In this document: piece after piece, positions 3,737 through 17,678 of the stretch | Numbering within the stretch: position 1 is the first letter of the stretch | How the letters are laid out: each line of letters opens with the position of its first letter | IMG/VR virus record: IMGVR_UViG_3300027683_000015 | Span: 1-31,412 of that record | Length of the DNA stretch: 31,412 bases | Origin: a virus | Taxonomy: Duplodnaviria; Caudoviricetes | Reading direction: 5' to 3' (one strand) | Position numbers and translations under genes: made by a program | The notes under the pieces: model-generated | Told to the model about the DNA's origin: nothing | Database searches by the model: none | The model's input: the letters and a program-made list of their open reading frames with translations, nothing else

Positions 3737-4012
3737 CTACGCAGCGCCCTCCCGGCGACGGGAAATCCCTAATTCTAGCTGGAAGCGATCCTCCTCCTGG
3801 TCATACTTGACCTTGGACTGTACTTCGATGTACTTCTCCAAGAAGTGGCGGGCCTTCTCCAAGTCCTGGATGCCGTTCTTGTTCTTCCACCGGGTGACGT
3901 ACTTGGTGATTTGAGCCTGGAAGTAGTCAAGGTCATTAGCCACCACGTAATCCCAGTGTTGAATGGAGGACTTGTAGTGGTTCCCCCCGACTTGTTTGTC
4001 ATTTGCATTCAT
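3737..4012 (-). CDS. DUF3310 (SaV-like) protein
   Basis: QVGGNHYKSSIQHWD...ITKYVTRWKNKNGIQDLEKARHFLE is the DUF3310 signature; start at 4012 behind AAGGAG. Confidence 0.85.
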   Translation of the reverse strand: MNANDKQVGGNHYKSSIQHWDYVVANDLDYFQAQITKYVTRWKNKNGIQDLEKARHFLEKYIEVQSKVKYDQEEDRFQLELGISRRREGAA

Positions 4013-4547
4013 GTTGAATCTCCTTGAGAAGTTGGCGAGTTGCGGGCAGAGGATCGTTGGTACGAAGCCAATCCACCCCTCTGGCCAGGATCGGCTTGAA
4101 CTGCGAGTTACCCATGTTGATCTCTTCCAGCGCCTTGAAGCAAAGATCAAGCATGTCGGCTTGCTTGAGTACCTTGCACCCGTAGGGGGTGAGGGTATGA
4201 ATGTTGAACCACTGATAGTCGAACCGACGCTCCATGGCGGTCAGTGCTGCCTTGAGTTCAGGACTGTCCCACTTGGCCGTGGCCGGAACGTCGCCGGTGT
4301 ATTGCTCAGCCATGTCGTGAGTCAAGGCAGCCATGAGCAAAGTCGCGCTGGGCTTCTCCTCGGTGATCAGAACGCACAGGATGGCTACGTTGGCGGAATG
4401 GTGACCCACGGTCTCCCCCACAATAGTGTCGCAGGTATGGTAACGCTTGACCTTGTTGCCTGAGCGATACCGCTTTATGGTGGACATAGTGGGGTAGGAG
4501 GCAATCACCTCCTCCAGATCCCGCAGCTTGCTGAGGGTATCGCTCAT
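3999..4547 (-). CDS. HD-domain deoxynucleotide phosphohydrolase (YfbR-like)
   Basis: R.H...ETVGHHS...AALTHDMAEQYTGDVPATAK...LKQADMLD matches the YfbR-type HD motifs. Confidence 0.85.
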   Translation of the reverse strand: MSDTLSKLRDLEEVIASYPTMSTIKRYRSGNKVKRYHTCDTIVGETVGHHSANVAILCVLITEEKPSATLLMAALTHDMAEQYTGDVPATAKWDSPELKAALTAMERRFDYQWFNIHTLTPYGCKVLKQADMLDLCFKALEEINMGNSQFKPILARGVDWLRTNDPLPATRQLLKEIQHECK

Positions 4548-5509
4548 TTCTGTTCCCTCCGCTCGATCCACTGAAGGCAGGCAAGCCGCCAGTCGTCGGC
4601 CCGCACATCTTCCAACGCCTTGCGTCCGTCGTTGCGACCCTCCTTGCGATCAAACCACGAATCCCACATAGGGATGGCTACCTCATGGAAGAATGGGTTT
4701 TTGATCTCCGTGAAGTCCCCTTCGTGCATAAAGATGTCCAGGTCGTTGAACCAGTGGTTGGGGTCATACACGAGCGGGTAGGATTGGATTCCCTCAACCT
4801 CATACACGCTCTCCACGTTGGTAGGGATATTACTATACAATTCCCATCCTTGGCCGATTTCGGTGTAGAGGTGGGCGTTGTTAGAGAATTGGCGATATAC
4901 CCCCACTTCCCTATGTAGCATGGATGCAACTATCTCCTGGAGGAACGACATATGGACTGCGTTCGCCCCGAACATCCCCCAGATGACGTCGTTTGAGCGA
5001 TTACAGACCGTCATATTCAGCCGCCCCTTCACGATGTCGAAGTAGATATGGGTGTTACACGGAAGATCCACGGAGTCCACATCCAAATCATCGTTGGGAT
5101 CCCACATGGCGATAACCGCCCGCCTGGTAAATGGTTCGTGCTGGAGAAGATGGACAATATCCATCACTTGGTCAACCCCGAAGTGTCTCCTCCACCGGTG
5201 ACCATAGGCTCCGTGGAAGTTCAACTCGTTGTCACTGAACTCGCGCATCCGCTTGTTAAATTGAGACACCCATAGCACGTCGTTCCTACCGGCCATCATC
5301 CACAGACACTCCATGAGGTGAAAGTAGGGATTCGCATCCCGCTTGGGGTTAAACAGCACCCGCTCGGTGGGGTTGGCATAGGTGACCATAATGGGCTCAG
5401 TAAGCCGAAGCGCCCTTCCATTGCGAGTTTGCTCCAGCTCGCTTGACGACCGGAATCTCCAGAGGATGTCGTTCAGCCCCTGATCCAGACTATGTACAGT
5501 TAGTTCCAT
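4544..5509 (-). CDS. dUMP hydroxymethylase (thymidylate synthase superfamily)
   Basis: GAYGHRWR, TRRAVIAMWDP, catalytic DLPCN, and NRSNDVIWGMFGANAVHMS. Asn at the dUMP-specificity position and the RSND..WG...AN..H pattern of 5-hmdU phages. Confidence 0.85.
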   Translation of the reverse strand: MELTVHSLDQGLNDILWRFRSSSELEQTRNGRALRLTEPIMVTYANPTERVLFNPKRDANPYFHLMECLWMMAGRNDVLWVSQFNKRMREFSDNELNFHGAYGHRWRRHFGVDQVMDIVHLLQHEPFTRRAVIAMWDPNDDLDVDSVDLPCNTHIYFDIVKGRLNMTVCNRSNDVIWGMFGANAVHMSFLQEIVASMLHREVGVYRQFSNNAHLYTEIGQGWELYSNIPTNVESVYEVEGIQSYPLVYDPNHWFNDLDIFMHEGDFTEIKNPFFHEVAIPMWDSWFDRKEGRNDGRKALEDVRADDWRLACLQWIERREQK

Positions 5510-6282
5510 TAGTATTTGCTCCTAGCGTATCCACGCTTCCATTTGAAGAATTCGCACAGGCAGTTCTGCATATCCTGGGCGTCCACATCGACTACATCAG
5601 ACACCTCCAACCGAAGGCGATTGACTTGTATTTGAAACTCCTCCTGATCCCACTTCTTGTCCAGGGGGTAGTTGCGAAGGTAGTTCAGCCCCTTCTGGGA
5701 GCCTGGGCCGGGAGCGCAGAATATGTCCTTATCGGGAGCGTTCTGTAACACCCAGGTGTGTTTGAGATCAGCTACGATCTGGGCGGCGATGAAGCTGCCA
5801 CAGCGTGGAGCGTTTTGGAGCTGACGCCACATACCATAGCAGCGGGTCGTGGGGACCATCTTGTCAATCTCGTCCAGCGTCCGGGCCACGGACTCATACT
5901 TGGGGGAGCCATCATGCTCGGCAGTAATCATGTACGCCCCCGTCCAGACCTTGCCGGGCCTTTCAGAAAGCTGTTTCATGTTGGCGATAAACATGTCCCT
6001 CCTTACCCCCCAATCATCTATGTATCCGATGTTATGGAGAGTGGGAATCCAGTTGATCAACCTGCACATAGCCATATTGAGGATCATAGCTGGGTGGCCG
6101 GGGTAGGGATCGCGGAAATGCTCCTTGATGTAGCGAGTAACCTTGTCATCTTCCCGGTGGACGTTACAGAAGCGGTAGGTGGCCAGCATGGGATCGTCGG
6201 TGAAGGGGCGCTTCTCCCCTGCCTCCTTCTTGACCCGGACCGCCTCACGCTCCGTGATCCAGAACTTGAGATCGTCAATCAT
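5509..6282 (-). CDS. Clade-1 aGPT-Pplase / 5-hmdU DNA kinase helical-domain protein (HhH-glycosylase-like fold)
   Basis: WITEREAVR..KEAG..PFTDDPMLATYRFCNVHREDDKVT, AYMI, GSFIAAQIVADL, GPGSQKGL, D.QNCLCEF.K; probable start MIDDLKFW at 6282. Confidence 0.85.
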   Translation of the reverse strand: MIDDLKFWITEREAVRVKKEAGEKRPFTDDPMLATYRFCNVHREDDKVTRYIKEHFRDPYPGHPAMILNMAMCRLINWIPTLHNIGYIDDWGVRRDMFIANMKQLSERPGKVWTGAYMITAEHDGSPKYESVARTLDEIDKMVPTTRCYGMWRQLQNAPRCGSFIAAQIVADLKHTWVLQNAPDKDIFCAPGPGSQKGLNYLRNYPLDKKWDQEEFQIQVNRLRLEVSDVVDVDAQDMQNCLCEFFKWKRGYARSKY

Positions 6283-6838
6283 GATGGTTCTCGAATAGGT
6301 CAAGAAGTTGGTCGGTAGGGAAGTTGTCCCACTCTAGCACTGCCACGTTCCGGCCTGCCGCAGTGAGCTTCCGCTGGAGAGCGTTGATGGGAATGACCCG
6401 CTTGCGAGTATTGTCCTCATTCAACGGCTTCAACTCCCCACGTTCGGCACGGCGAATCTTGACCCTCCTGATGCACTCATCGATGGGAGTATTGAGGAAA
6501 GCGAAGATGTGGCGATTGCCCCACTTCTCCGTGATGGCCCCGAGCTTGCCGTAGTAGGTGGAGAGCAAAAGCCCCTCGTACAGCACGTGACCTTCGTCAG
6601 CATACTTCTCGATCAACTCGATCTGACGCTCCACAGAGGTCACGCCGTCCATCCCGCCGCACTTGTTCTCATACGGGCCCAGGACGTACAGAGGGCGCTT
6701 GAGAGCGGGGTGCTCAACCTTGTACGCTTCGGGCCGCTTGACGGGACCGATGCGGGTGATCTTGTTGGCGTCGTCAAAGATGTCACGAACAAGGGTGGTC
6801 TTTCCCGCCCCGCTCGTGCCGTGGATCTTGATAATCAT
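6275..6838 (-). CDS. P-loop kinase of the 5-hmdU DNA kinase type
   Basis: Walker A GTSGAGKTT; LGPYENKCGGMDGV and VLYEGLLLS motifs typical of kinases in thymidine-hypermodification clusters. Confidence 0.8.
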   Translation of the reverse strand: MIIKIHGTSGAGKTTLVRDIFDDANKITRIGPVKRPEAYKVEHPALKRPLYVLGPYENKCGGMDGVTSVERQIELIEKYADEGHVLYEGLLLSTYYGKLGAITEKWGNRHIFAFLNTPIDECIRRVKIRRAERGELKPLNEDNTRKRVIPINALQRKLTAAGRNVAVLEWDNFPTDQLLDLFENHHD

Positions 6839-10990: not shown

Positions 10991-11433
10991 TTTCCTGCGT
11001 CGGGATGAGAGAGAAGCTTGATGCCGGAATCGAACAAGTTCTTCATGGCGGCTTGTCTTGCTTCCATACGTGCAATCAAGTCAGAGTTCGCCTTAAGCTG
11101 CTGCACAATCTCCTCGTTGTCGATTTCAAGGGACTCAGCCTTCGCTTTGAAAGTGTTACGCTCAGTAACCACAACCGGCTCCTTCCACTTCCACCTGCGC
11201 TCCTCGATCTTCCACGTTTTCTCCAGCTCATCATATTGGGGAGCTTCGCTGTTTGCATCATAGCGAAGGGCTTGACGAATTCTCATGAGGTTGTAGGCTT
11301 TTCCAAACTTCTGAAAAAGTCCTTCCTGAAGCCCCTCAAGGGAAAAGTGCTCATCGCACCTTTCCTTCAAGAAGATGCTGAGGCGGGTGCGAATATTGTT
11401 ACGGTAGGTAAGGGTATCATGCTTCGGCTTCAT
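10987..11433 (-). CDS. Hypothetical protein (possible wHTH plus coiled coil)
   Basis: ATGA-coupled 148-aa ORF with AAGGAG SD; AT-richer than its neighbours. Confidence 0.65.
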   Translation of the reverse strand: MKPKHDTLTYRNNIRTRLSIFLKERCDEHFSLEGLQEGLFQKFGKAYNLMRIRQALRYDANSEAPQYDELEKTWKIEERRWKWKEPVVVTERNTFKAKAESLEIDNEEIVQQLKANSDLIARMEARQAAMKNLFDSGIKLLSHPDAGK

Positions 11434-12188
11434 TTTGAAAGCTCCTTAATGGTGGTAAATGCAAGGTTAATTTGAGCAAGAAGCTCGGTGTCCGTCCGAA
11501 GTTTCGGTTGGTCGGAATGGTACAGCGATGCGAACATCGCCTTTGCTGCTTTCTGTCCAGCCTCGTTATGGCTGTACATAAGAATTCTGAACTGCTCTAT
11601 GAGGAACTCTTCTGGCCGACGTTTGGGATCTGATCCTATTGCGGGAAGCTCATACTTGGGCTTTACTTCCGGTTCCGGCTCTGGGTCAGGGAACCGCTCC
11701 TTGTCCTCAATCTCTGCTGCTCTCCAATCAGCTATTAACCGCTCTCTGGCTTCCCACGCCTCGTTTTTTAAGCGCCTGTCCTCAGCTTTAGCAGCCGCCC
11801 ACTCTTCAACAGTGTCGAACCCGGCCTTGACCGCTAGGATGTCATCCCTTCTTACCTGCTCCCCAAACTCCTCAACTACATACTCGAAGTCATCATCTGG
11901 AAGGGTGGTGAGTAGGTATAGGCTGTATTGTGCCTTGGGAAGCGAGTTACTAGCGCGGCTAGTAACTCGTTTGTCAGCACCTACGGAAATCATGTTCGAT
12001 ACGGATTGTTGAGACAGTCCGTATCGGTCAGCAATGGATTGTTGGGTGATGTATTCTGGATCGCGCTGATTAACCCCCTCGTTCTTACACAGGAATACCA
12101 TTTCCTTTGCTGCCTCAACAGTAAAGGTGCCGAACAAGGTATCTAGCTTGTCCCATCTGGACTTACTTGTAGTTACAGCGCTCATCAT
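11430..12188 (-). CDS. HTH-containing hypothetical protein with J-domain-like C-terminus
   Basis: HTH TQQSIADRYGLSQQSVSNMI; LP....LY.LT.LP segment; C-terminal LYHSD...LLAQINLAF. Confidence 0.65.
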   Translation of the reverse strand: MMSAVTTSKSRWDKLDTLFGTFTVEAAKEMVFLCKNEGVNQRDPEYITQQSIADRYGLSQQSVSNMISVGADKRVTSRASNSLPKAQYSLYLLTTLPDDDFEYVVEEFGEQVRRDDILAVKAGFDTVEEWAAAKAEDRRLKNEAWEARERLIADWRAAEIEDKERFPDPEPEPEVKPKYELPAIGSDPKRRPEEFLIEQFRILMYSHNEAGQKAAKAMFASLYHSDQPKLRTDTELLAQINLAFTTIKELSK

Positions 12189-13449: not shown

Positions 13450-13755
13450 CTATTCCCCATATTTCTGATAGATGTCGTCAATGGCAGCGAGGAGCAGCTT
13501 GTAGTTTGTATTCTCCTTTTGAGAGATCAGGAACAGATCGTGGGGGAAGTCCCTGTCCTCGGGGTACATCGCATTCTCCAGGAGCATCTTCCACTTGATG
13601 GGGAAGTCCCTGAGCGGGACTGAGTTCATCTTGAGCATGTAAAGGCATGCATTCAGTCGCCCATAGTCGTTGGCGGTCGGCTTGTCAACATCGATGCCGA
13701 GTTCCTTAATCATCCAGATGGATTGTTCGATGAGGGAAGGGGGAAGGGTGGTCAT
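13450..13755 (-). CDS. Hypothetical protein
   Basis: AGGAG SD and ATGA overlap; 101 aa. Confidence 0.65.
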   Translation of the reverse strand: MTTLPPSLIEQSIWMIKELGIDVDKPTANDYGRLNACLYMLKMNSVPLRDFPIKWKMLLENAMYPEDRDFPHDLFLISQKENTNYKLLLAAIDDIYQKYGE

Positions 13756-13979
13756 GCGATTCTCCTGTTAATTAGGATCATACCGGTGATGGGGAGGATG
13801 TGATGATCCTCGGTGACGGCTTGCCACATGTAGCCGGCGGCGATAAAGGTGGGGGCGTCCAGCGGGTGGGAAGGAAGGCGACCGTACAGAGCGTCATCCT
13901 GCCACTCGGGCTGGAGGGAGGTCGTCATAGGTGACGCCACTCCGGTGGTAGAGAGGGTGGGGCAGTTACAGTGGTACAT
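13752..13979 (-). CDS. Hypothetical protein, first gene of the leftward arm
   Basis: GAGGAG 7 nt before ATG at 13979 (MYHCNCP...), just downstream of the class A promoter. Confidence 0.55.
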   Translation of the reverse strand: MYHCNCPTLSTTGVASPMTTSLQPEWQDDALYGRLPSHPLDAPTFIAAGYMWQAVTEDHHILPITGMILINRRIA

Positions 13980-14021
13980 CGTCAGCTCCTCAGTTAGTCT
14001 AGCACTCACGCTAGGGAAACT

Positions 14022-14060
14022 CTATTATACCGGAGAATTACGATGAGGGGTAACAATCTT
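14022..14060 (-). promoter_or_regulatory. Class A promoter driving the replication arm
   Basis: AAGATTGTTACCCCTCATCGTAATTCTCCGGTATAATAG; second copy of the 6866-6904 motif. Confidence 0.75.
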
Positions 14061-14067
14061 CTACCAA

Positions 14068-14091
14068 ATTACGCGATCGCGTATACGTAAT
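14068..14091. promoter_or_regulatory. Candidate operator (nested palindromes)
   Basis: Perfect 14-bp palindrome TACGCGATCGCGTA (14070-14083) overlapping CGTATACG, inside ATTACG...CGTAAT, between divergent promoters. Confidence 0.45.
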
Positions 14092-14118
14092 ATGCGGACC
14101 TACACGAAATAAAGACGA

Positions 14119-14167
14119 GAAATGCCTTTACTTTCTAAAATGCGACGGTATAATTGAGTCATAGCTA
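14119..14167 (+). promoter_or_regulatory. Class B sigma70-like promoter
   Basis: GAAATGCC-TTTACT-N16-TATAAT-TGAGTCAT; first 16 nt identical to the minus-strand promoter at 18417-18466. Confidence 0.75.
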
Positions 14168-14200
14168 GGGTGGTCCTGGCTACAACTAAGGAGAATTACC

Positions 14201-14593
14201 ATGAAACTGCGTCTTACCAATGAAGCTGGTCTCAACGTTCTGCTCGTCGAACATGTCATGCGCAAGGTCGGCACCGACATCACTGTCACCATCGACGGCG
14301 TGGAAGGCCTGGCCCGTACCAACGAGAAGCGCAACCTGACCTATGTCACCATCGGCGAGACCGCCATGCGGGTGGCCGCGGTGCTGGAGGACGGCGGCGA
14401 ATACACCACCAAGGAGTGGGAGGCCAAGGCCAAGCCGGAACCGGAACTGGATGCCGATGGCAACCCGGTCGTCAAGGTCCGCAAGCCGCGTGTCGCCAAG
14501 GAGCCGGTTGTGGACGCCGAAGGCAACGTGGTCGAGCCGGTCAAGAAGGTCCGCAAGCCCAAGGCCGTCGTGGCAGAAGCCGAAGCAGCCTGA
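14201..14593 (+). CDS. Hypothetical protein with basic repeat tail (paralogue A)
   Basis: AAGGAG SD, own promoter and terminator, biased codons; two DA(D/E)GN.V...KVRKP repeats. Confidence 0.8.
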   Translation: MKLRLTNEAGLNVLLVEHVMRKVGTDITVTIDGVEGLARTNEKRNLTYVTIGETAMRVAAVLEDGGEYTTKEWEAKAKPEPELDADGNPVVKVRKPRVAKEPVVDAEGNVVEPVKKVRKPKAVVAEAEAA

Positions 14594-14610
14594 TCTACCT
14601 GGGTTCAGAG

Positions 14611-14646
14611 AATAGCCGCTACCCACAAGGTAGCGGCTATTTCTTT
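14611..14646 (+). terminator. Rho-independent terminator
   Basis: 13-bp stem AATAGCCGCTACC/GGTAGCGGCTATT followed by TCTTT. Confidence 0.8.
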
Positions 14647-14668
14647 GCCTATCGGAAAGGCGTATACT
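14640..14668 (+). promoter_or_regulatory. Putative primase promoter
   Basis: TTTCTT-N17-TATACT with the AGGCG-TAT element shared with the promoters at 18842-18880 and 24235-24263. Confidence 0.55.
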
Positions 14669-14683
14669 AGCCGTTCGGTAGGT

Positions 14684-14757
14684 AAAAAGAAGCCCCCCAC
14701 AGCGATCAGTCCATGGGGGGCATAGGCGTCAGGGGCAGAGTCCCGACTCATAACACA
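14684..14757 (-). ncRNA. Predicted ~74-nt counter-transcribed RNA antisense to the primase leader
   Basis: Minus-strand promoter at 14764-14792 and minus-strand terminator GCCCCCCA...TGGGGGGC-TTCTTTTT ending near 14684; no ORF with an SD. Confidence 0.6.
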
Positions 14758-14763
14758 GTCATA

Positions 14764-14792
14764 ATTCTACCCTGACTTTCTGTGGAAGTAAA
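14764..14792 (-). promoter_or_regulatory. Antisense promoter
   Basis: TTTACT (14792-14787)-N17-TAGAAT (14769-14764), the same -35 hexamer as the other class B promoters. Confidence 0.65.
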
Positions 14793-14811
14793 GTCAATCG
14801 AGGTATTTATT

Positions 14812-16842
14812 ATGGTTCAAGTATCCCCCCTTAATACTCCAACAAACAACTACAAGCGGTGGACCAATAGCTGCGGCCTTACTGATGATGATCTCCTTCG
14901 TATGGGGATCAAGCATATTACCAAGGAAGATGCCAGCCAATTCATAGGCTTCATTCCCGATAAGGCATGCGCCGTCATCCCCTACCCAGCCACCACCTTT
15001 GTACGGGTCCGCCAGCTATTCGGGCCCAAGGAGGTAGTTGAGAACAAATACCTCTCCCCCAAGAGCAGTGGGTGCTCTCCTGTATATCTCCCGCCCTGGC
15101 CCGGTCTTGAGTGGGCGGACATAATGGCCGACCCCTCCATCCCTGTTAGCATTACTGAGGGGGAGGCCAAGAGCTACACCGGCTGCAAGTATGGGGGTAC
15201 CACTATTGGCATCGCCGGCACCTCCATGATCGCCACGCTCTTTGACGGACAGTGGGCATGGGACGGGCGTGTTGTATCAGTTATCTTTGACCACGACGCC
15301 GGGTGCGAAGCTGGGGAGTACAAGCAAGGCAATCACGATGCTCTTGGCAGGCTGTGCAGCCAGCTTATGGCGGTGGGGGCCAATGTAATCGTCATCGACA
15401 TCGGCAAGGTCTGTAGAGATGTGTCCCGTAAGTGGGGGCTTGACGATTACCTTCTTGATGGGGGAACTTGGGAGACGCTGCTAGGCACGGCCCACGAGCC
15501 GCCTGAGTGGTGCTCTCTTCTGGATGAGCTTATGCGCACTTGCGTCTTTGTCGTCGGCACGGACAAGACCCATATCTACAACCTTGTCGACGGCTCCCGT
15601 AAGCTGGTAGGAGACTTCCACCAAGCCAACATAAGTAAGCGCCGCCTTGACCGCAGTAATCCAGACAAGCCCCCCAAGGTCGTACAGATCAGCAATACCT
15701 GGGTGGAACATAAGAACCGCCCCACCGCGCTGACCTATGAGCTCAACCCACGCTACCCATTCGGCTTGAGGGGCAATATGATCAACCTCTGGCACGGCTA
15801 CCCCGAATTCAAATTAGGTAGCCGTGCCAAGACTGAGCAAGTTCAGGAGGAGTGGAAGCGGTTTGTGGAGGGGCTGTTTGGGGATCAATGGGAGTGGGTC
15901 TGCACGTGGGCGGCTCATATGTTGAATAGGCCTGAGGAGCGCTGTACCCAAGCCGTTATGTTGCTAACTAAGGTTCAAGGCATCGGCAAGTCGCTGTTCG
16001 GCGACGTGCTACGCGACCTCACGGGAGTCCATGGGCTGGAGTGCTCGTCAAGTAGGATGTTTGACAAGTTCAACGCCTCCATGGAGGCCAAGACGCTCGT
16101 CATGGTGAATGAGCTTGACGTTAAGTTCAACGCCCGTGAGGGCCAGCTTAATGATCTGTTGACTGAGGAGGTGGTTACAGTTGAGCCGAAGGGGAAGGAT
16201 GCCTTCAACCTAGCCAACCTGCGCCGATGGTATCTTACCACGAACAGTGCGTCACCGTGTAGATTGAGCGCCGGACAGAGGCGGGTGCTCGTTGTACAGC
16301 CTCCACGTACTCATGTAGACACCAGAGGCGACTGGGGCGACTGGGTCAGGGATGAGATTGCTGGCTTCCGCAGGGATGACGAGGCGTTGGCCGCGATCCG
16401 GCTGTGGTTTGATCAGATCTGGGCAGATTATGGGGAGGGATGGGACAGCACTGCACCCGTCCCGCGCACAGACGCCGCCGACCAACTGGCTGAGGCCTCA
16501 ATGACTACCAACCAAATCATCGCTGAAAGTGTTATCAGAGAGATGGCGGACATGGATGGAGGGTGGGGAGCCATACACCCTGATCTGAAGAAGTTGAACA
16601 ATACCATTTGGGGGGAGGTCATGCAGACGATCAAAGCCACTGGAGGGTATGTAGGTCAGAAGAAGGTCAAGGAGGGAGGGAGGGAGGTGTACCTTACCAT
16701 CTATGACCTTGAGGGTACAATGGAGCGCGTCCGTACTTCCAGCGGGAGCTATAAGATCCACTGCGAGGCTGTGGAAGCCAAAGAAAGGTCAGAAAAGCTA
16801 CATTTGGCCTTGGAATCCCTTGTGGAGCGCCTAAAACACTAG
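14812..16842 (+). CDS. TOPRIM (DUF3854-like) primase fused to SF3 (DUF5906/NrS-1-like) helicase
   Basis: KYLSP, ITEGEAK, IFDHD, KWGLDDYL; Walker A QGIGKS, FNA...LVMVNE, LTTN; GAGGT SD before ATG at 14812. Confidence 0.88.
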   Translation: MVQVSPLNTPTNNYKRWTNSCGLTDDDLLRMGIKHITKEDASQFIGFIPDKACAVIPYPATTFVRVRQLFGPKEVVENKYLSPKSSGCSPVYLPPWPGLEWADIMADPSIPVSITEGEAKSYTGCKYGGTTIGIAGTSMIATLFDGQWAWDGRVVSVIFDHDAGCEAGEYKQGNHDALGRLCSQLMAVGANVIVIDIGKVCRDVSRKWGLDDYLLDGGTWETLLGTAHEPPEWCSLLDELMRTCVFVVGTDKTHIYNLVDGSRKLVGDFHQANISKRRLDRSNPDKPPKVVQISNTWVEHKNRPTALTYELNPRYPFGLRGNMINLWHGYPEFKLGSRAKTEQVQEEWKRFVEGLFGDQWEWVCTWAAHMLNRPEERCTQAVMLLTKVQGIGKSLFGDVLRDLTGVHGLECSSSRMFDKFNASMEAKTLVMVNELDVKFNAREGQLNDLLTEEVVTVEPKGKDAFNLANLRRWYLTTNSASPCRLSAGQRRVLVVQPPRTHVDTRGDWGDWVRDEIAGFRRDDEALAAIRLWFDQIWADYGEGWDSTAPVPRTDAADQLAEASMTTNQIIAESVIREMADMDGGWGAIHPDLKKLNNTIWGEVMQTIKATGGYVGQKKVKEGGREVYLTIYDLEGTMERVRTSSGSYKIHCEAVEAKERSEKLHLALESLVERLKH

Positions 16843-17032
16843 GGGGGCTACCCCCCTACCCCCTCTGGCTACCCCCCTAGAAAAACCCTTTAGAATTAAG
16901 GAGTTGAGTATAAAAGGGGGGTAGGGGGGTAGGGGGGGGTAGTATATAATCAGCGGTAGAAAAAATAGAGACCCTCTTTCATAGGAACGAATTTAGACCC
17001 CCTACCCCCCCGCCCCCCCCTACCCCCCCCCC
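16839..17032. repeat. Putative replication origin: CTACCCCC / GGGGGTAG tract array around AT-rich spacers
   Basis: Five CTAC(n) units on + (16848, 16856, 16869, 17002, 17020) and three on - (16916-16942), separated by AT-rich DNA, directly after the primase stop. Confidence 0.6.
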
Positions 17033-17282
17033 TGCCTGTGATTATGCCTTTTCCACCCCCATTTCCACCCACAAGAGCACGTGGCTGATGTTCCTCACCT
17101 ACCAATCTACACGCCCGAGCATGGCCCTCCACGATCGCTCGCAGACCGCCCCCGCTACCCCTACAGACTCCCCCAGGAGGCCACTACAGGGCACCGTAGC
17201 GGGCTTTCAGGGGTAGGTGGGCATCTACCCCTTCCCGACGCCTAGCGCCTCTCCTGCGAGCACGCATAGGCAATGATGCGCA

Positions 17283-17304
17283 TAGAAATGGCCCCGAAGG
17301 GCCA
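17283..17304 (-). terminator. Terminator of the leftward early cluster
   Basis: Minus strand TGGCCC-TTCG-GGGCCA-TTTCT, a C(UUCG)G tetraloop followed by a U-tract. Confidence 0.7.
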
Positions 17305-17328
17305 AGGAGGATTGCAGGAGTGGATTGG

Positions 17329-17409
17329 CTACCCTATGCCTACCCAGAGGGCGGTAAAGGAGGCAACAGCCCAGAGGATCAGGATGGCGCCCTCTCCCCC
17401 GCGTCTCAT
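17329..17409 (-). CDS. 26-aa hydrophobic peptide
   Basis: MRRGGEGAILILWAVASFTALWVGIG; ATGA overlap with the upstream stop; ends just before the terminator; below the ORF-track cut-off. Confidence 0.5.
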   Translation of the reverse strand: MRRGGEGAILILWAVASFTALWVGIG

Positions 17410-17678
17410 GTTGACCGCCCCCAAGCTGCACGAAGGATGTTACCCAGGGTCATCCGCTGGTGGCCGATGTTCAGGTGGGCATACCGGGCCAGGCTGGTAC
17501 CCTTGGGCAGCCCACGAATCTCATCCACCCACTCGCCCAGGACTTCGTTGGGGACGCCACGCATACGCAGCGCGGCAGCGTCACCGTTGTCCCAGCCGAT
17601 GGTGCCGTTGGGTAGGGTGTACGACTCGTAGCGAGCGGTCTTGGCCATCAAGATGGTCTTGGTCATGGTGCTGGCCAT
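17406..17678 (-). CDS. Conserved early phage protein of unknown function
   Basis: GGAGG SD; DNGD..A..LRG-like and RYAHLNIGHQRMTLGNILR motifs recognised from uncharacterised phage early genes. Confidence 0.7.
   Translation of the reverse strand: MASTMTKTILMAKTARYESYTLPNGTIGWDNGDAAALRMRGVPNEVLGEWVDEIRGLPKGTSLARYAHLNIGHQRMTLGNILRAAWGRST

Follow-up and report, generated by a model that had tools for sequence, protein, structure and literature searches.

That plasmids control their replication initiators by antisense RNA is textbook knowledge. In the Staphylococcus multiresistance plasmid pSK41, RNAI, a counter-transcript of ~80 nucleotides (nt), pairs with the leader upstream of the initiation region, and its binding gives rise to a stem-loop in which the ribosome-binding site (RBS) is hidden (PMC5703833). 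In the repABC system of p42d (Alphaproteobacteria), the Shine-Dalgarno (SD) sequence, like the start codon, is single-stranded without the counter-transcribed RNA (ctRNA), and the leader refolds when it is present (PMC3155836); in pT181 (RNAI) and pIP501 (RNAIII), a pre-emptor and a shared arm govern an induced stem-loop just before the start, with termination as the main effect (PMC5703833). At the asRNA1/ssr7036/CyRepA1 locus of pSYSA from Synechocystis, asRNA1 is 153 nt long and overlaps a small open reading frame (ORF), and the model is one of ColE1-like priming (PMC9978351, PMC10079941), while among phage RNAs OOP of lambda lies beside the lambda replication genes (PMC12197685). Here we describe a candidate device of related anatomy in a tailed phage (Duplodnaviria; Caudoviricetes; IMG/VR record IMGVR_UViG_3300027683_000015). 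It occupies the untranslated leader of a primase-helicase gene in the window, that is, the whole 31,412-nt stretch analyzed, which is one entire contig and a linear virus record estimated to be 80% complete.

Within this leader, a host-polymerase-type promoter on the opposite strand is predicted to make an antisense RNA of ~74 nt whose target would be the gene that opens the primase operon. We propose, with moderate confidence, that the locus is an indirect translational switch, placing the primase operon under negative feedback that grows with the number of genomes or the time since infection. The nascent leader is predicted to pair an upstream segment (arm 1) with a middle one (arm 2), so that the SD sequence stays open. 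The antisense RNA would then bind through the YUNR motif of its terminator loop and through its 5' part, occupying arm 1; arm 2, once released, is predicted to pair instead with the SD region and arm 3, and fewer ribosomes would load. As the antisense RNA would accumulate with genome number or time, less primase-helicase would be made per genome, and initiation might be capped or timed at an iteron-like origin just 3' of the gene. Three things are observed directly, namely the motifs, their shared occurrence or shared lack in relatives, and helix changes that affect both strands; the switch logic built on them is computationally well supported. Our search of the literature, in which subscription coverage was thin, found no tailed, non-integrating phage with such a layout on its primase leader, and the word "primase" is absent from the covered text of a 2025 review of phage small RNAs (PMC12197685).

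Relatives were collected by primase-based scans (42-53% identity), to which a scan with a homolog of the upstream gene added the closer phages L096-L098. The tally comprises the window and nine relatives (L097, L098, L023, L018, L005, L007, L021, L022 and L006); it excludes L019, L020 and L024, which are near-identical to L005, as well as L096, whose contig stops short of the leader, and sequences nearly identical to the window. A strong antisense promoter and a minus-strand terminator occur together in four of the ten sequences (the window, L097, L098 and L023, called carriers below), and both are missing in L018, L005, L007, L021, L022 and L006.

Predicted antisense RNA and leader folds

All motif coordinates given by a first-pass annotation, which had read the locus as a plasmid-style counter-transcribed RNA switch, were verified in the sequence (Table 1), and the antisense promoter and minus-strand terminator said to bound a ~74-nt RNA fully complementary to the leader are present at sequence level. 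The starts of both RNAs were inferred from the -10 positions. A generic promoter scan of 13500-17500 carries little weight by itself, since it returned four promoter-like sites, the minus-strand promoter among them, against 2.4 expected from shuffles. Genome-wide, five of nine TTTAC[T/A] sites have a -10 at 16-17 nt (four intergenic, one inside the gene preceding the capsid gene), and all five are matched by counterparts at corresponding places in the close relative G004; TTTACT reads as the phage's own -35. A promoter of this class appears on the minus strand in 87 of 20,000 shuffled leaders, and the antisense promoter scores at least as high as the sense promoter in all four carriers. The sense -35 is weak and sits in the T-run of the upstream terminator. 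The context of the sense -10 recurs in L023, L018, L005, L007, L019, L021, L022, L097 and L098, and a hairpin with a T-run at the position of the upstream gene's terminator is also found in relatives.

The antisense strand folds better than 200 of 200 shuffles (z -3.25), mainly owing to the terminator. Its hairpin is more stable on the minus than on the plus strand in the window (-21.0 versus -17.1 kcal/mol) and in L097 (-24.9 versus -23.5 kcal/mol), and the U-tract lies on the minus strand in every carrier. The terminator loop contains YUNR in four of four carriers, compared with a chance of 23-28% per random loop; YUNR motifs accelerate sense-antisense pairing in hok/Sok and pIP501 (PMC6562991).

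The mutually exclusive folds predicted for the leader leave the antisense RNA covering the upstream arm, not the SD sequence. In the ON fold, the arm 1:arm 2 helix pairs at 7/7 positions in the window, 8/8 in L097 and 7/8 in L098, with letters that differ on both strands, and crossing the arms lowers stability to -7.4 and -5.5 kcal/mol, as compared with -14.3 and -12.6 kcal/mol for matched arms. An ungapped alignment on arm 2 gives three two-sided changes in this helix; a one-base shift turns them into a single two-sided substitution, an insertion that is paired and a change from G-C to G-U. The stem of the antisense terminator also carries two-sided changes among relatives. In simulated transcription, arm 3 has yet to be made when the ON helix is complete (P 0.99-1.0 at 14777-14793), the barrier from ON to OFF is predicted at ~13-14 kcal/mol in the window, and when the antisense-covered bases are forced to be unpaired the OFF hairpin is predicted to remain. 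The 7-bp SD-proximal stem merely abuts the SD sequence, the occlusion of which requires a predicted outer extension of the stem.

Masking the antisense-covered part raises the cost of opening the -20..+10 footprint by 4.4 (window), 3.0 (L023), 6.6 (L097) and 8.5 (L098) kcal/mol. In the same order, this effect is matched by 0/150, 1/150, 0/60 and 0/60 whole-leader shuffles and by 3/150, 11/150, 0/60 and 1/60 arm-only shuffles. It is positive in all 15 settings for L023 and in all 12 for each of L097 and L098, and amounts to +2.8 to +6.6 kcal/mol in nine wide-footprint settings for the window. Across related leaders, for which the first-pass annotation had named co-folding and covariation as a check, the analysis gave two-sided ON-helix changes and a raised opening cost in four carriers, and the annotation's suggestion that the stems exclude each other, with the antisense RNA favouring the SD-proximal hairpin, draws support from conservation, from the two-sided helix changes and from folding energetics in relatives.

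The same hairpins could operate on transcription, either because the OFF hairpin together with UUUAUUAU forms a weak terminator of the pT181 kind or because convergent transcription damps the sense promoter. A 6/8 U run does follow the OFF hairpin in the window and L097, the two promoters converge ~80 nt apart, and control at this level would also reach the primase genes of L097 and L098, which lie behind a small ORF. We nevertheless consider attenuation or interference unlikely: L098 and L023 lack the U run while SD pairing is kept or strengthened, a terminator scan called no plus-strand terminator at the OFF hairpin, and pure interference leaves the two-sided arm 1:arm 2 changes unaccounted for. 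Another possibility is that the small RNA is real and acts chiefly in trans (host targets or other phage targets), while translation is damped separately and constitutively by the leader hairpins. Relatives without the antisense cassette do retain an SD-hiding hairpin, and the phage small RNAs PreS and VpdS act in trans and affect replication (PMC12197685); moreover, L018, which is without the RNA, still has an upstream alternative helix, so that the comparison with relatives lacking the RNA is not a clean one. Yet the best second site in the window reaches -42.6 kcal/mol, near the tail of the background, versus -77.1 kcal/mol for the cis target, and the 5' part of the RNA is its least conserved segment, as expected of a cis antisense RNA, which makes a mainly trans-acting role very doubtful. 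Translational control through the leader remains the reading we prefer.

Two further candidates in the leader were rejected. A leader peptide from a 20-codon upstream ORF at 14713 has no SD sequence, and neither its start nor its stop is preserved in L097, L098 and L023; a CsrA sponge, suggested by two GGAC motifs in the window and L023, is not borne out, as L097 and L098 have not retained these motifs. A 48-codon minus-strand ORF (14751-14605) is cut across by the antisense terminator. Against Rfam, the window gave no match at the gathering score (the best was NsiR1, E 0.13, 21.8 bits versus a cut-off of 39) and none to the ctRNA families at E up to 10, and L097, L098 and L023 gave 0 matches.

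Table 1. Positions of the leader elements and of associated features in the window
Feature	Position	Strand	Remarks
Antisense promoter TTTACT-17-TAGAAT	14792..14764	-	Reads as the phage's own promoter class
Antisense intrinsic terminator, predicted	14684..14721	-	11-bp stem (14721-14692), 8-nt loop, U-tract on minus strand alone
Predicted antisense RNA	14757..14684	-	~74 nt; 5' part complementary to arm 1, 3' terminator hairpin with YUNR loop
Predicted untranslated leader, bistable	14675..14811	+	~137 nt
Arm 1 (anti-anti-SD; core GTCAGGG 14728-14734)	14722..14744	+	Covered by predicted antisense RNA
Arm 2, shared switching strand	14764..14783	+	CCCTGAC 14770-14776 and TGACTTT 14773-14779
Arm 3 AAAGTCA (14790-14796) and SD GAGGT (14800-14804)	14790..14804	+	Pairs with arm 2 in predicted OFF fold
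Predicted sense promoter	14640..14668	+	-35 TTTCTT, 17 nt, -10 TATACT (14663-14668)
Start codon ATG	14812	+	Primase-helicase
Primase-helicase, 676 aa	14812..16842	+	DUF3854 (Toprim-related) and DUF5906
Iteron-like array, putative origin	16840..17035	.	Facing triplets of short G-rich repeats flanking an A/T-rich spacer
Predicted intrinsic terminator of upstream gene	14615..14646	+	9-bp stem, T-rich tail; fold z -5.19
130-aa gene, function not assigned	14201..14593	+	Family marker directly 5' of leader in most relatives
Virion genes (terminase, portal, capsid, tail parts)			Domain/family matches
Replication genes (family-A DNA polymerase (PolA), SNF2 helicase, nucleases)			Domain/family matches

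Distribution of the cassette and apparent exchange of the primase module

The leaders of L097 and L098 are homologous to that of the window, and L023 shares their layout. When the window is compared with L097, the antisense hexamers are identical at 12 of 12 positions, the spacer at 10 of 17, arm 1 at 9 of 23 and the terminator loop at 6 of 12; both hexamers are identical in L098 as well. L018 was considered as a further carrier and is counted as lacking the cassette, with only the AGTAAA (-35) before its SD sequence, a degraded -10, no terminator and inconsistent energetics (-3.3 to +9.2). It lends some colour to the idea that the cassette arose by chance, an A-rich stretch before the SD sequence mimicking a -35 on the opposite strand and the hairpin being incidental. 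Such an accident is extremely unlikely given the rarity of the promoter in shuffled leaders, its joint presence or absence with the terminator across the ten sequences, and the two-sided helix changes.

Scans of viral contigs for the pattern (2, 11, 47 and 22 loci) recovered just copies of the window phage and chance matches, apart from two of the 22 loci, which are L097 and L098. The covariance model built from the window, L097 and L098 found no match in the leaders of phages PW916 and AXL3, GenBank phages gave no DNA match to the window leader, and no leader variants were seen among contigs from the four runs compared. In L005, L007, L019, L021 and L022, an SD-hiding hairpin lies 50-65 nt 5' of the primase start, with tandem GCCCCT-like repeats. 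L021 also has a stretch of ~400 nt (1015-1400) that lacks a clear ORF; it separates the upstream gene from its terminator, carries a repeated 12-mer and gave neither a tRNA nor an Rfam match at the gathering score. In two unrelated lambdoid-like phages (L071 2501-2612 and L072 2501-2612), a TTTACT-type promoter and a strong terminator could delimit an RNA of ~75 nt, directly 3' of a cro-like gene and co-directional with that operon.

The window and L097/L098 share 83% identity in PolA, 81% in TerL and 93% in the capsid protein, as against 29-30% in the primase. L097 and L098 have primases 45% identical and leaders that are nearly identical. The primase and the adjacent array are swapped as an apparent unit (window 14812-17035; L097 10821-13060; L098 10831-13050), and the repeat units differ, GGGGTAG in the window versus GTTACGG in L097/L098. 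By sequence comparison, the leader cassette is retained while primase and repeats are exchanged and is not tied to a single primase-origin module, which makes it unlike a plasmid replicon. Each relative examined has an array of like layout, with other repeat units, 3' of the primase gene, and this constancy of layout with units that vary with the primase allele suggests a protein-specific origin. The start of the window primase-helicase agrees with the N-terminus of an 85%-identical homolog (P0002). The small ORFs beneath the switch in L097 (10603-10824, 73 aa) and L098 (10625-10828, 67 aa) have no PHROG match, and their site is a possible insertion hotspot.

A number of observations weigh against the proposed switch. 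The L023 antisense hairpin folds slightly better on the plus strand (-14.0 kcal/mol minus versus -16.1 kcal/mol plus). On the raw alignment, a 1-nt register shift leaves RNAalifold with just one two-sided change in the ON core, and since the antisense -10 and -35 overlap the helices, conservation of the hexamers has two possible causes. The full-length window leader is isoenergetic in the ON and OFF folds (-45.2 versus -45.4 kcal/mol), and the free full-length L098 leader is already OFF once the SD sequence is made, so that any ON period there would be kinetic; the model therefore relies on folding kinetics, which are only approximated. The masking effect in the window depends on the footprint, falling to -0.5 to +0.6 kcal/mol for the SD sequence alone or -15..+3 (six narrow settings). 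Absence of the cassette from six relatives indicates that it is dispensable in the family, the near-identity of the L097 and L098 leaders reduces the carriers to about three independent versions, and the covariance model did not recover the L023 leader. Finally, the ORF directly behind the leader in L097 and L098 is an unrelated small one, the end of which overlaps or abuts the primase start, and the primases carry SD-like motifs of their own; primase control there would therefore need coupling or polarity. These intervening small ORFs are the chief weak point for primase dosage as the purpose of the switch.

Lifestyle and genome setting

A hydroxymethyluracil (hmU)-type nucleotide module and a phage-owned PolA are typical of lytic phages, and the podophage is probably lytic. 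The first-pass annotation had noted the lack of a visible integrase, which is borne out in that no tyrosine integrase was found in any of seven records. It took this as a hint of a plasmid-like or carrier state. In such a state, the antisense RNA would set genome number in a persistently infected cell and block sister phages in trans, a form of repressor-free RNA immunity. The anatomy does recall plasmid devices, the DUF3854 primase-helicase and the iteron-like array next to it look like a rep-ori unit, a plasmid initiator of DUF3854 type, CyRepA1, has an antisense RNA nearby (PMC9978351, PMC10079941), and small helix-turn-helix (HTH) genes are present, two of them in the window. However, ParA (AAA_31), ParB (ParB_N), resolvase and the S24 repressor gave no match in five of five records, one of which, G004, is near complete (98%), and the G004 genes in the part missing from the window have structural or unassigned matches only. 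The phage also owns PolA, an SNF2 helicase and the hmU-type genes, the best plasmid primase matches span at most 30% of the protein, and the cassette is not bound to one primase-origin module, the near-identical leaders of L097 and L098 standing before primases so far diverged. Copy-number control in a carrier state is accordingly improbable, and of the two options raised at first, timed or dosage-limited replication is the better one.

A bolder form of the dosage reading would make the diffusible antisense RNA a genome-dosage sensor in a phage without integrase, partition system or repressor, which throttles the primase-helicase initiator at higher copy number or multiplicity of infection, silences incoming sister phages and could permit a repressor-free carrier state, as a portable backbone cassette beneath which primase-origin modules and small ORFs are swapped; we regard this as speculative and rather unlikely. 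If the translational switch is real, apparently lytic phages can meter their own replication through RNA feedback, and the locus offers a handle on the sensing of genome dosage or co-infection without a repressor, as well as a new RNA family, compact in size, whose natural sequence variants could serve in synthetic antisense switches.

The phage DNA was matched in freshwater-sediment and soil metagenome runs. Its nearest capsids are those of Stenotrophomonas phage BUCT555 and Myxococcus phage Mx8, and its primase matches in GenBank phages reach just 22-29% identity among the 30 of 132 records listed. A nucleotide-modification module on the minus strand (3999-6838) encodes an HD nucleotidase, a thymidylate-synthase homolog, a 5-hydroxymethyldeoxyuridine (5-hmdU) DNA kinase helical domain and a nucleotide kinase, which suggests that the DNA of this podophage, whose capsid is Mx8/BUCT555-like, contains hmU. 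A second promoter-like class, with CGG abutting a near-consensus -10 and without the TTTACT -35, occurs on the minus strand at 14032, 13785 and 6876, and these sites precede leftward replication and nucleotide genes. The gene at 11430-12188 (minus strand, 252 aa) has a weak HTH match and a C-terminal part that is J-domain-like by eye; its counterpart is found in L098 and L006, not in L097. The 130-aa gene upstream of the leader has no Pfam or PHROG match, and a profile search with it gave 26 protein matches.

Comparison with known systems

With pSK41 RNAI/RepA_N, which together with the repABC ctRNA comes nearest to it, the locus shares the approximate length of the antisense RNA, its complementarity to the leader and, by prediction, the hiding of the RBS. 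It differs in that the target is a Toprim-type primase-helicase of a phage rather than the RepA_N protein of a plasmid, in having no sequence likeness at the level of Rfam, and in the candidate origin, which lies 3' of the gene here and within the gene in pSK41. The repABC ctRNA likewise has its gene located in the leader; there, however, the induced structure is an intrinsic terminator, and the repABC markers (repA, repB, parS, RepC) are not seen here, with no AAA_31 or ParB_N match and a gene of DUF3854 plus DUF5906 type. The same three-part arm logic is found in pT181 and pIP501, where the hairpin induced is a U-tailed termination hairpin, in contrast to the imperfect U run present in two of the four carriers, and by its domains the gene is not a rolling-circle Rep_trans initiator. 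In protein context pSYSA is closest, with an antisense RNA 5' of a DUF3854 primase-helicase initiator, although the helicase of CyRepA1 is of the DEXDc type and that of the phage is DUF5906.

Among phage elements, lambda OOP and P22 sar (PMC12197685) and P4 CI RNA are likewise small RNAs that pair with phage transcripts; OOP targets cII and sar targets the antirepressor, and both come from temperate elements. The CI RNA of satellite P4, also a temperate element, controls the operon with the alpha primase-helicase, and is processed from the same strand and causes termination. Of the plasmid analogy with which the first-pass annotation began, the switch logic draws computational support, and a translational, pSK41-like mode fits better than the pT181 one, since pT181 acts mainly by termination (PMC5703833). 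As read from its sequence, the phage device would work like pSK41 RNAI, the repABC ctRNA and the pT181 pre-emptor, while being a member of none of these systems.

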